In this document: positions 31,134 to 61,941 of the stretch, in pieces | How positions within the stretch are numbered: the first letter of the stretch is position 1 | Layout of the letters: each line of letters begins with the position of its first letter | Assembly: GCF_003334305.1 (NCBI RefSeq) | Contig: NZ_QOWS01000013.1 | Strand: one strand, 5' to 3' | Length of the DNA stretch: 64,000 nucleotides | Source: Escherichia coli | GTDB lineage: Bacteria > Pseudomonadota > Gammaproteobacteria > Enterobacterales > Enterobacteriaceae | The notes under the pieces: generated by a model | What the model saw: the letters and a program-made list of their open reading frames with translations, nothing else | Database searches by the model: none | What the model was told of the DNA's origin: nothing | Program-made: the position numbers and the translations under genes

Positions 31134-33470
31134 ATGAAGCAAATTCGTCTGCTGGCGCAGTATTATGTTGACCTGATGATGAAGTTAGGTCTGGTGCGCT
31201 TCTCAATGTTGCTGGCGCTGGCCCTCGTCGTTCTTGCCATTGTGGTACAAATGGCGGTAACCATGGTGCTGCATGGTCAGGTCGAAAGCATTGATGTTAT
31301 TCGTTCTATCTTCTTTGGTTTGCTGATTACGCCGTGGGCGGTCTACTTTCTATCGGTGGTCGTCGAGCAACTGGAGGAGTCACGACAACGTCTGTCACGG
31401 CTGGTGCAAAAACTGGAGGAGATGCGCGAGCGCGATTTGAGCCTCAACGTTCAGTTAAAAGATAATATTGCCCAGCTAAATCAGGAAATTGCCGTTCGTG
31501 AAAAAGCGGAAGCAGAACTGCAGGAAACCTTCGGCCAACTGAAAATTGAAATCAAAGAGCGCGAAGAGACACAAATTCAGCTCGAGCAGCAATCCTCATT
31601 CTTACGTTCCTTCCTTGATGCTTCACCCGACCTGGTTTTTTATCGTAACGAAGATAAAGAGTTTTCCGGCTGTAACCGCGCGATGGAGCTGCTGACCGGA
31701 AAAAGCGAAAAACAACTGGTTCACCTGAAACCTGCTGATGTTTACTCACCGGAAGCCGCCGCAAAAGTCATTGAAACCGATGAAAAAGTGTTCCGTCATA
31801 ATGTGTCACTGACCTATGAACAGTGGCTGGATTACCCGGACGGGCGCAAAGCCTGCTTTGAAATCCGTAAAGTGCCGTACTACGACCGCGTGGGTAAACG
31901 TCACGGTTTGATGGGCTTTGGTCGCGACATTACCGAGCGTAAGCGGTATCAGGATGCGCTTGAACGGGCCAGCCGCGACAAAACGACGTTTATTTCCACC
32001 ATCAGTCACGAATTGCGTACACCGCTGAACGGTATCGTCGGCCTGAGCCGTATTCTGCTGGATACCGAACTCACCGCCGAGCAGGAAAAATATCTCAAAA
32101 CTATCCATGTTTCGGCCGTCACGCTGGGGAATATCTTCAACGATATTATCGACATGGATAAGATGGAACGGCGCAAGGTCCAGCTTGATAATCAACCGGT
32201 TGATTTCACCAGCTTCCTTGCCGATCTGGAAAATCTCTCCGCATTGCAGGCGCAACAAAAAGGATTGCGCTTTAACCTGGAGCCGACGCTGCCATTACCG
32301 CATCAGGTCATTACCGACGGGACGCGTTTACGGCAGATCCTGTGGAACCTCATCAGTAACGCCGTCAAATTCACCCAGCAAGGCCAGGTTACCGTGCGTG
32401 TGCGCTACGATGAAGGCGATATGCTGCATTTTGAAGTGGAAGACTCTGGTATCGGCATTCCGCAGGATGAGCTGGATAAAATTTTCGCCATGTATTACCA
32501 GGTGAAAGACAGTCATGGCGGTAAACCTGCCACCGGCACCGGTATTGGTCTGGCCGTTTCTCGTCGTCTGGCGAAAAATATGGGCGGCGATATTACGGTT
32601 ACCAGCGAACAGGGCAAAGGTTCAACCTTTACGTTGACGATCCACGCACCGTCGGTAGCAGAAGAGGTCGATGATGCGTTTGATGAAGACGATATGCCTT
32701 TACCGGCGCTGAATGTGCTGCTGGTGGAAGACATTGAACTGAACGTGATTGTTGCGCGTTCTGTGCTGGAAAAATTAGGTAACAGCGTTGATGTCGCCAT
32801 GACCGGCAAGGCGGCGCTGGAGATGTTTAAACCGGGCGAATACGACCTGGTGTTGCTGGATATTCAGTTGCCAGATATGACCGGGCTGGATATCTCTCGT
32901 GAACTGACGAAGCGTTATCCGCGCGAGGATTTACCGCCGCTGGTGGCCTTAACCGCTAACGTGCTGAAAGACAAACAAGAGTACCTCAATGCTGGAATGG
33001 ATGATGTGCTGAGTAAGCCGCTTTCGGTTCCGGCGCTAACCGCGATGATCAAGAAATTCTGGGATACCCAGGATGATGAGGAGAGTACGGTGACGACAGA
33101 AGAGAACAGTAAATCAGAAGCATTGCTCGATATTCCCATGCTGGAACAGTATCTCGAACTTGTAGGACCGAAGCTGATCACCGACGGGTTAGCGGTGTTT
33201 GAGAAGATGATGCCGGGCTATGTCAGCGTGCTGGAGTCGAATCTGACGGCGCAGGATAAAAAAGGCATTGTAGAGGAAGGACATAAAATTAAAGGTGCGG
33301 CGGGGTCAGTGGGGTTACGCCATCTGCAACAGCTGGGTCAGCAAATTCAGTCTCCGGACCTTCCTGCCTGGGAAGATAACGTCGGTGAATGGATTGAAGA
33401 GATGAAAGAAGAGTGGCGTCACGACGTAGAAGTGCTGAAAGCGTGGGTGGCAAAAGCCACTAAAAAATGA
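31134..33470 (+). CDS. arcB: Aerobic respiration control sensor kinase ArcB
   Basis: 778-aa ORF with two TM segments, PAS, HisKA (ISHELRTPLN), receiver and HPt domains; matches ArcB. Confidence 0.96.
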   Translation: MKQIRLLAQYYVDLMMKLGLVRFSMLLALALVVLAIVVQMAVTMVLHGQVESIDVIRSIFFGLLITPWAVYFLSVVVEQLEESRQRLSRLVQKLEEMRERDLSLNVQLKDNIAQLNQEIAVREKAEAELQETFGQLKIEIKEREETQIQLEQQSSFLRSFLDASPDLVFYRNEDKEFSGCNRAMELLTGKSEKQLVHLKPADVYSPEAAAKVIETDEKVFRHNVSLTYEQWLDYPDGRKACFEIRKVPYYDRVGKRHGLMGFGRDITERKRYQDALERASRDKTTFISTISHELRTPLNGIVGLSRILLDTELTAEQEKYLKTIHVSAVTLGNIFNDIIDMDKMERRKVQLDNQPVDFTSFLADLENLSALQAQQKGLRFNLEPTLPLPHQVITDGTRLRQILWNLISNAVKFTQQGQVTVRVRYDEGDMLHFEVEDSGIGIPQDELDKIFAMYYQVKDSHGGKPATGTGIGLAVSRRLAKNMGGDITVTSEQGKGSTFTLTIHAPSVAEEVDDAFDEDDMPLPALNVLLVEDIELNVIVARSVLEKLGNSVDVAMTGKAALEMFKPGEYDLVLLDIQLPDMTGLDISRELTKRYPREDLPPLVALTANVLKDKQEYLNAGMDDVLSKPLSVPALTAMIKKFWDTQDDEESTVTTEENSKSEALLDIPMLEQYLELVGPKLITDGLAVFEKMMPGYVSVLESNLTAQDKKGIVEEGHKIKGAAGSVGLRHLQQLGQQIQSPDLPAWEDNVGEWIEEMKEEWRHDVEVLKAWVAKATKK

Positions 33471-33582
33471 CCCCGGCTAGACCGGGGTGCGCGAATACTG
33501 CGCCAACACCAGGGAAATCTTGGCTGCGCCGTAAATTATTATGATGAGTTACAAGGGCACAGCACTGTTTTTCAGGCCGCAC
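33462..33582 (-). ncRNA. arcZ: ArcZ small RNA (RyhA/SraH)
   Basis: Minus-strand sequence GTGCGGCCTGAAAAACAGTGCTGTGCCC...GGCGCAGTATTCGCGCACCCCGGTCTAGCCGGGGTCATTTTTT matches ArcZ as I recall it, including the terminator hairpin and T-tract; its 3' end overlaps the arcB stop codon. Confidence 0.8.
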
Positions 33583-33699
33583 GCAGTTAAGATAGCAAAA
33601 CTTAAATGATTTGTTACATGAATCAGTTAAATGTGTGATGCGTACCATTTTTATTAAAAAAATTAATGTGTTTCAGTCAATTGCGAAAGGATGATCACA

Positions 33700-34353
33700 A
33701 TGAAGAAAATTGGCGTAATTCTGAGCGGATGCGGCGTCTATGACGGTTCTGAAATTCATGAAGCGGTGTTGACGTTGTTAGCTATTTCACGCAGCGGTGC
33801 GCAGGCGGTCTGCTTTGCACCGGATAAGCAGCAGGTTGATGTTATCAACCATTTAACTGGCGAAGCGATGACGGAAACGCGCAACGTGCTGATTGAAGCG
33901 GCACGAATAACGCGCGGTGAAATCCGTCCTCTGGCCCAGGCCGATGCCGCTGAACTGGATGCGTTGATTGTGCCGGGGGGGTTTGGCGCGGCGAAGAATT
34001 TAAGCAATTTTGCCACTCTTGGTAGCGAATGCACCGTTGACCGTGAATTAAAGGCGCTGGCACAAGCGATGCATCAGGCCGGAAAACCGCTTGGTTTTAT
34101 GTGTATTGCCCCGGCGATGCTGCCGAAAATTTTCGATTTCCCGCTGCGTTTGACCATCGGTACTGATATCGATACCGCAGAAGTGCTGGAAGAGATGGGC
34201 GCGGAGCATGTGCCCTGTCCTGTCGATGATATCGTGGTTGATGAAGACAATAAGATTGTCACCACCCCAGCATATATGCTGGCGCAGAACATTGCAGAAG
34301 CGGCGAGCGGCATTGATAAGCTGGTTTCCCGCGTGCTGGTTCTGGCTGAATGA
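33700..34353 (+). CDS. elbB: Glyoxalase ElbB (DJ-1/PfpI family)
   Basis: ORF-track ORF 33691..34353 trimmed to ATG 33700 ([13 protein letters not shown]...), 217 aa; matches ElbB. Confidence 0.9.
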
Positions 34354-55050: not shown

Positions 55051-55169
55051 AATCTCGCGCTAACAACCTGGAATCGAGCCGTCATACTACGGCGCAACGC
55101 CCTATAAAGTAAACGATGACCCTTCGGGAACTTCAGGGTAAAATGACTATCAAAATGTGAATTGTAGCT

Positions 55170-55203
55170 GACCTGGGACTTGTACCCGGGTCGGTATTTT
55201 TTT
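55170..55203 (+). terminator. Intrinsic terminator in the greA leader (3' end of the GraL leader RNA)
   Basis: GACCTGGG-acttgta-CCCGGGTC hairpin followed by GGTATTTTTTT, ~95 nt upstream of the greA ATG. Confidence 0.55.
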
Positions 55204-61854: not shown

Positions 61855-61941
61855 GCCGAGGTGGTGGAATTGGTAGACACGCTACCTTGAGGTGGTAGTG
61901 CCCAATAGGGCTTACGGGTTCAAGTCCCGTCCTCGGTACCA
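61855..61941 (+). tRNA. leuU: tRNA-Leu (anticodon GAG), leuU
   Basis: 87-nt sequence GCCGAGGTGGTGGAATTGGTAGACACGCTACCTTGAGGTGGTAGTGCCCAATAGGGCTTACGGGTTCAAGTCCCGTCCTCGGTACCA: acceptor stem pairs with the 3' end, long variable arm typical of tRNA-Leu, encoded CCA; directly downstream of secG as in the reference. Confidence 0.9.

Follow-up and report, generated by a model that had tools for sequence, protein, structure and literature searches.

The small RNA gene arcZ, convergent with and overlapping the end of arcB, in an Escherichia coli contig

GadY is a small RNA (sRNA) whose 3′ end overlaps the convergent gadX mRNA, and ArcZ resembles it in having a 3′ end that overlaps a convergent mRNA, that of the oxygen-sensor gene arcB. 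In contrast to cis-overlapping sRNA/mRNA pairs of the GadY/gadX type, the main documented action of ArcZ is exerted in trans, on unlinked mRNAs, whereas its cis overlap with the arcB coding sequence amounts to just 9 nt, which may or may not be what mediates arcB repression. The overlap with arcB and the Rho-independent terminator of ArcZ were described in a 2024 review (PMC11331407), and, in a work in which GadY is also mentioned, a −10 promoter mutant was chosen over a deletion during strain construction, so that "the overlapped arcB gene" was left untouched (PMC3937726).

Hfq binds the 121-nt ArcZ, and RNase E cleaves it between AG and AUUU, which leaves an invariant 3′ fragment of ~56 nt (PMC11331407). 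Under the RNase E rule, cleavage takes place after RN and before WUU, with CCCUGGUGUUGGCGCA coming next, and the active form has 56 nt (PMC11331407). In this respect ArcZ is like other sRNAs whose active 3′ fragment is released by RNase E, such as MicL and RprA. The ArcZ fragment bears the seed, the terminator and the Hfq-binding U-tail (PMC11331407). The seed CCCUGGUGUUGGCGCA pairs with target mRNAs, activating the translation of rpoS and repressing flhDC, mutS and others (PMC11331407). Phosphorylated ArcA represses the arcZ promoter under low oxygen, the levels of ArcZ are higher in aerobic and in stationary-phase cells, and ArcZ lowers arcB mRNA, closing a feedback loop (PMC11331407). It was further speculated that the arcB mRNA acts as an antisense RNA on ArcZ (PMC3937726; PMC11331407).

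Here, we describe this locus in a stretch of 64,000 nucleotides of E. coli DNA (NCBI RefSeq assembly GCF_003334305.1, contig NZ_QOWS01000013.1), hereafter the window, to which all coordinates refer.

Identity of the arcZ locus and its putative promoter

The gene and its two closest neighbors are the following:

31134..33470, plus strand: arcB, coding for the hybrid sensor kinase ArcB (778 aa) and ending AAA AAA TGA (ORF list, NF008302 and RefSeq annotation of identical DNA).
33462..33582, minus strand: arcZ primary transcript, 121 nt, with +1 at 33582 and the 3′ end in the U-tract at ~33462 (RF00081 and K-12 identity).
33700..34353, plus strand: elbB, divergent from arcZ, with the annotated ATG at 33700 and a mechanical ORF from 33691 (NF008747 and K-12 coordinates).

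The whole window was compared with Rfam 15 at gathering thresholds (cmscan), and ArcZ was one of the three matches obtained. The RF00081 match lies on the minus strand at 33475-33582, spans model positions 1-106 of 106 and scores 120.8 bits, against a gathering threshold of 66 (E = 4e-27). The end of the Rfam model falls inside the terminator. Over the full 121 nt, the arcZ of E. coli K-12 MG1655 (b4450, NC_000913.3 3350577-3350697) is identical to 33462-33582 at 121/121 positions. A chance match is excluded by the Rfam E-value together with the exact identity to a characterised gene, and we regard it as practically certain that this stretch is the arcZ gene, encoding the Hfq-dependent sRNA ArcZ (also known as SraH or RyhA). 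A sequence-only reading of this DNA had placed ArcZ on the minus strand at 33462-33582 and had named an alignment to the Rfam family as a check; the alignment, run here, and the K-12 comparison both bear out that placement. Every feature of ArcZ membership that can be tested in silico was found at the locus.

The flanking genes present the canonical arcB-arcZ-elbB synteny. ArcB matches the NCBIfam equivalog NF008302 with 1483.1 bits (cut-off 838), its residues 1-778 aligning with profile positions 1-779, and ElbB matches the equivalog NF008747 with 357.5 bits, residues 4-219 aligning with profile positions 1-217; yhcC is located upstream, and elbB and mtgA are located downstream on the plus strand. 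The locus is like that of K-12 (b4450, RF00081) in sequence, 9-nt overlap, synteny, terminator, RNase E motif, seed and promoter region. The 16 differences from K-12 observed in the surrounding 3 kb all fall within the coding sequences of arcB, elbB and mtgA, none being present within arcZ or its promoter. The DNA is therefore from E. coli, near to K-12 but distinct from it. A 451-nt stretch of the locus (arcB end, arcZ and elbB start) is 100% identical to that of many bovine and human isolates, and among 5426 complete E. coli genomes 5417 carry arcZ, with at least 99% identity in 5396 of these.

In the E. coli genomes searched, the NCBI automatic annotation has arcB and elbB alone at this locus and omits arcZ. 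Users of that annotation would meet a conserved hairpin without an explanation, in a spacer of 230 bp that seems "empty".

Upstream of the annotated +1 we infer a promoter, from the position of its hexamers relative to that +1 and from conservation:

33589..33617, minus strand: putative arcZ promoter, with a −35 element GTAACA (33612-33617), a 17-nt spacer, TG at −15/−14 and a −10 element TATCTT (33589-33594).

The block TCACACATTT...GTAACA...TTTGCTATCTTA hardly varies among the 27 relatives whose 5′ ends align with E. coli, whereas the transcribed 5′ half diverges. A scan of 33300-33800 for the sigma-70 consensus, at a threshold of 9/12, retrieved 0 sites; the putative arcZ promoter was not flagged because its hexamers match at 8/12, and it seems to rely on the TG of an extended −10 element. 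The best match to the ArcA-box consensus (GTTAATTAAATGTTA) near the promoter has 5 mismatches, which is the chance level (102 such matches in the window), and so no ArcA site was assigned at the arcZ promoter.

It could be thought that the match corresponds to a copy that is decayed or silent in this strain. We consider this exceedingly improbable, given the complete identity to the functional K-12 arcZ and the zero differences from K-12 over 33366-33884, a segment that takes in arcZ, its promoter and all of the DNA between arcZ and elbB. The promoter is also free of IS elements, unlike that of the C600-type genomes described below.

The arcZ promoter is interrupted by IS1 in ~55 other E. coli genomes, as a result of two independent insertions, and most of these genomes belong to K-12 laboratory lineages. 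The insertions were spotted through 54 E. coli genomes in which arcZ was intact but the 451-nt query (arcB end, arcZ and elbB start) was broken. Strain HSP60 carries a 768-bp IS1A in the arcZ promoter, with a 9-bp target duplication, AGATAGCAA, that corresponds to 33590-33598 of the window (arcZ −8 to −16). In ~54 genomes IS1A is inserted 5 bp further upstream than in HSP60, in the same orientation; nearly all of these are K-12 laboratory lineages (C600/EC600, TG1, RV308, GM4792, NEB Turbo, CV601 and derivatives), and C600, the one genome of this set that was examined, has an 8-bp duplication, CAAAACTT, corresponding to 33596-33603. In both events the TGCTATCTT −10 element is kept beside arcZ, and the −35 hexamer is moved 768 bp away together with the conserved block upstream. 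The reported lack of the whole arcZ gene in ER2796 is a different event from the IS1 insertion. A limited literature search retrieved no published report of this IS1 polymorphism in the arcZ promoter.

Geometry of the arcZ/arcB overlap and the terminator

Two features define the junction between the two genes:

33462..33470, both strands: arcZ/arcB overlap of 9 nt, AAAAAATGA on the plus strand and UCAUUUUUU on the minus strand (sequence and K-12 annotation).
33470..33488, minus strand: ArcZ intrinsic terminator hairpin, ACCCCGG UCU AGCCGGGGU, followed by U6 at 33462-33467 (terminator scan and predicted fold).

The genes are convergent, tail-to-tail, and the 9 nt that they have in common are two lysine codons and the stop codon of arcB. 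ArcB terminates with ...KATKK, encoded by GCC ACT AAA AAA and followed by TGA at 33468-33470, and the minus strand reads U CA UUUUUU from 33470 to 33462. The U6 tract of ArcZ is thus the complement of the last two lysine codons of ArcB, and the UCA that precedes it is the stop codon TGA read on the opposite strand: the TG of the stop codon pairs with a CA linker, and its last A (33470) is the complement of the 3′-most base of the terminator stem. The K-12 annotation has the identical 9-nt overlap (arcZ end at 3350697, arcB begin at 3350689).

That ArcZ converges on arcB and that its terminator T-tract covers the last arcB codons and the stop codon had been proposed from the sequence. Both points stand, with the ArcB equivalog at 31134-33470 on the plus strand and the overlap at 33462-33470, the latter with one refinement: the base of the hairpin and the UCA linker, and not the T-tract alone, also lie in the overlap. 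The arrangement had also been called known rather than novel, in agreement with the explicit statements of the overlap in the literature (PMC3937726; PMC11331407) and with the same 9 nt in the K-12 annotation. The ArcZ/arcB arrangement at this locus is already known, this being the reference locus, and no departure from it is observed within the window.

Since these 9 nt are shared, edits to the C-terminus or the stop codon of arcB, such as tags or deletions, change the terminator and the Hfq-binding tail of ArcZ, and vice versa.

The hairpin at 33470-33488 has 8 base pairs, 6 of which are G-C, and a 3-nt loop, and is followed by CATTTTTT on the minus strand. Terminators are frequently common to convergent gene pairs, and it could be argued that this hairpin terminates arcB in the first place, or arcB as well as arcZ, acting bidirectionally. 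On the plus strand its first base is the final A of the arcB stop codon, and its palindrome is near-perfect, so that it forms in both transcripts. However, past the same palindrome the plus strand reads UGCGCGAAUACUG / TGCGCGAATACTG, without a T-run, and thus without a U-run in the RNA. In addition, the terminator scan retrieved a single terminator-like site in 33300-33800, which belongs to the minus strand (ACCCCGGTCTAGCCGGGGT, then CATTTTTTAG), and none was found on the plus strand of that segment. We consider a bidirectional terminator unlikely. As the T-run is present on the minus strand only, we take the hairpin to be the intrinsic terminator of ArcZ and not a canonical arcB terminator, which upholds the explanation of the hairpin after arcB given by the sequence-only reading.

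Structure, conservation and predicted processing of ArcZ

Within the transcript the following elements were identified, all on the minus strand:

33523..33563, minus strand: stem-loop 1 (5′) of the full-length ArcZ, nt 20-27 paired with nt 53-60 (Rfam consensus structure).
33486..33510, minus strand: stem-loop 2, nt 73-97, with an inner stem GCGC/GCGC and a loop AGUAUUC (Rfam consensus structure).
33462..33518, minus strand: predicted processed, active ArcZ, corresponding to the 3′ part (~56-57 nt), with the RNase E site between AG and AUUU and the cut between 33519 and 33518 (RNase E rule, RN before and WUU after the cut; PMC11331407).
33499..33514, minus strand: seed, or target-pairing region, CCCUGGUGUUGGCGCA (role from PMC11331407).

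The RNase E motif and the conserved block AGAUUUCCCUGGUGUUGGCGCA, in which AG precedes the cut and AUUUCCCUGGUGUUGGCGCA follows it, occupy nt 63-84 (33499-33520), and the seed sits immediately after the AG/AUUU site that conforms to the published rule (PMC11331407). Stem-loop 2 lies directly upstream of the terminator and is partly in competition with it. The fold calculated from the single sequence has a minimum free energy of −42.3 kcal/mol (z = −2.7) and contains the terminator hairpin.

A plain-DNA scan with the 22-nt seed, in one genome per bacterial species, retrieved at least 120 loci, and all those among the matches listed belong to Enterobacterales or to unclassified MAGs, including Photorhabdus, Xenorhabdus, Yersinia, Proteus, Providencia, Morganella, Erwinia, Pantoea, Rahnella, Citrobacter, Enterobacter and Salmonella. 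The ArcZ seed adjoins an arcB-like ORF in Photorhabdus, Yersinia, Proteus, Providencia, Erwinia, Pantoea and others, and in Dickeya arcZ was described in the same genomic context as here (PMC10168573). The overlap was surveyed in the 110 other Enterobacterales species among the matches listed that had enough flanking DNA, by locating the long ORF that converges on arcZ and the point at which the ArcZ T-run stops. An overlap of 9-11 nt was observed at 93 of the 110 loci (9 nt in 13, 10 nt in 35 and 11 nt in 45), and at all 93 ArcB ends with Lys-Lys-stop, the stop codon being TGA or TAA. Departures from this pattern, found for the most part in Pantoea, Mixta, Pluralibacter and Morganella morganii, have an overlap of 0-2 nt or a gap of 4-10 nt: in these the arcB stop codon lies 0-2 nt into the U-tract or 4-10 nt beyond it, and the overlap is minimal or absent, as it likewise is in Pectobacterium carotovorum (PMC11331407). 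Two outliers among the 110 loci, with values of −76 and −196, look like disrupted arcB frames or cases in which the ORF picker chose the wrong ORF.

The ArcZ of other Enterobacterales (Salmonella, Yersinia, Photorhabdus/Xenorhabdus, Erwinia, Dickeya and Proteus) is like the one described here in the invariant 3′ processed part, in the hairpin followed by U6-U9 and in its convergence on arcB, usually with a 9-11 nt overlap with the Lys-Lys-stop of ArcB, while the 5′ halves diverge freely in sequence and length. In the group of Photorhabdus, Proteus and Providencia the terminator stem has AA/UU where that of E. coli has GG/CC. An alignment of 116 sequences presents the same division, with a variable, indel-rich 5′ half and a 3′ part that shows no variation between the RNase E site and the base of the terminator. 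The seed CCCUGGUGUUGGCGCA is invariant in 116/116 sequences, an invariance that is partly imposed by the pattern used in the seed search.

The structure is supported by the pattern of substitutions. Over the named structure 90.2% of the cells are paired, compared with 81.2% in shuffles, and 0/500 shuffles reach the observed value; double-sided changes number 230, against ~100 in shuffles. In stem 1 changes on both sides were observed across Enterobacterales for 8/8 pairs, and 77.7% of the cells are paired, compared with 25-48% in slid controls, in which the 3′ partners of the whole 18-pair structure were shifted by 1-3 columns. In the terminator stem, the two distal pairs switch between GC, AU and GU across 115 sequences, and 99.9% of the terminator cells are paired. 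Of stem-loop 2, the count covered the inner stem (nt 80-83 with nt 91-94), which does not vary in any of the sequences, and covariation is therefore uninformative on that stem.

A 62-codon ORF is mechanically present on the minus strand at 33460-33648, and we considered whether this stretch encodes a small protein, the RNA features being secondary. We rejected the ORF as coding and assign this explanation almost no probability. The ATG is located upstream of the annotated arcZ +1, the ORF is unannotated in K-12 and in RefSeq genomes, and the part of it that covers the 5′ half of ArcZ is full of indels of variable length and of low identity in relatives. The stems, the seed and the terminator, in turn, covary or stay invariant at the nucleotide level.

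Possible role of the overlap

With the elements described above, ArcZ would be transcribed from the minus strand, starting at 33582, with its 3′ end in the U-tract within the end of arcB. Owing to this convergent 3′ end, the ArcZ U-tract and the UCA that precedes it are the reverse complement of the codons for Lys-Lys-stop of ArcB.

The observation of no plus-strand terminator after arcB is compatible with the speculation that the arcB mRNA acts as an antisense RNA on ArcZ, without proving it. We put forward, tentatively and as the less probable case, that the tail-to-tail overlap of 9-11 nt is a functional, selected cis-antisense module and not an accident of gene packing. If so, the Lys-Lys-stop of ArcB (93/110 species) would be kept as the mirror of the Hfq-binding U-tail of ArcZ, and arcB transcripts, without a plus-strand terminator, would continue across arcZ, possibly as far as a weak stem plus U5 at ~33522-33575, and pair with ArcZ over its full length. 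ArcZ and the arcB mRNA would then destabilise each other, and the lineages that lost the overlap (Pantoea, Mixta and Pluralibacter) would have an altered feedback. Such a module was already raised as a speculation in the literature and, if true, would extend the known biology of ArcZ and arcB.

Variation and insertions in the arcZ promoter

At window position 33601 (+), which is position -19 of arcZ, the promoter spacer reads AAGTTTTGC in the window and in K-12, and AAGATTTGC in all 26 aligned relatives, among them three further loci (L051, L059 and L115) whose records carry the label E. coli. The two forms differ by one base, in a block that is otherwise near-invariant.

In other genomes, we also observed two independent events in which the promoter is interrupted between the -10 and -35 elements by a 768-bp IS1A, at sites that together correspond to window positions 33590-33603, the arcZ gene being intact in each case:

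IS1A insertions in the arcZ promoter of other E. coli genomes
L122, 3800-4567: IS1A of event 1, in the clinical strain HSP60, with a 9-bp duplication, AGATAGCAA
L123, 1551-2318: IS1A of event 2, in C600, with an 8-bp duplication, CAAAACTT

The event-2 insertion is found in approximately 54 genomes, nearly all of them K-12 laboratory lineages (C600/EC600, TG1, RV308, GM4792, NEB Turbo and CV601), and no IS1A is present at this promoter in K-12 MG1655 or in the window.

The arcB end and the region shared with arcZ

On the arcB strand, window positions 33522-33575 (+) hold the complement of ArcZ stem 1 (GCUGCGCC...GGCACAGC) followed by CACUGUUUUUCAGG, that is, a long-loop stem with a run of five U residues, located approximately 100 nt downstream of the arcB stop codon. 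This element is the only candidate that we noticed for the arcB 3' end, should arcB transcription read through the ArcZ terminator; it went unflagged in the terminator scan, which accepts loops of at most 8 nt, as its own loop is longer.

In two other loci, L027 (Candidatus Pantoea persica) and L077 (Kluyvera genomosp. 3), the longest convergent ORF downstream of the ArcZ seed stops 196 and 76 nt past the ArcZ U-tract, respectively, and has a C-terminus that is not ArcB-like. Possible reasons are a frameshift in arcB or its decay, an error in the sequencing, or selection of the wrong ORF.

A mechanical ORF of 62 codons (window 33460-33648, -) covers arcZ and its promoter. It is annotated nowhere and its reading frame is not kept in relatives; it is therefore almost certainly spurious, and was rejected as a gene.

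Other RNA features and the annotation of arcZ

Two further RNA families were matched in the window:

RNA family matches in the window
55081-55202, +: enterobacterial greA leader (Rfam RF01769, 127.5 bits, full length)
61855-61938, +: tRNA with a long variable arm (Rfam RF00005, 52.8 bits)

The first match, which ends in a terminator-like hairpin and U-run, is the known GraL/greA leader, whose presence at this E. coli locus is expected. The second would fit a tRNA-Leu, and leuU is the gene that one expects here in E. coli.

The arcZ gene is annotated in the curated K-12 MG1655 record. The automatic RefSeq annotation of the matched E. coli genomes carries no arcZ feature, only arcB (and elbB), so that most E. 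coli genomes, as annotated, do not show this sRNA.
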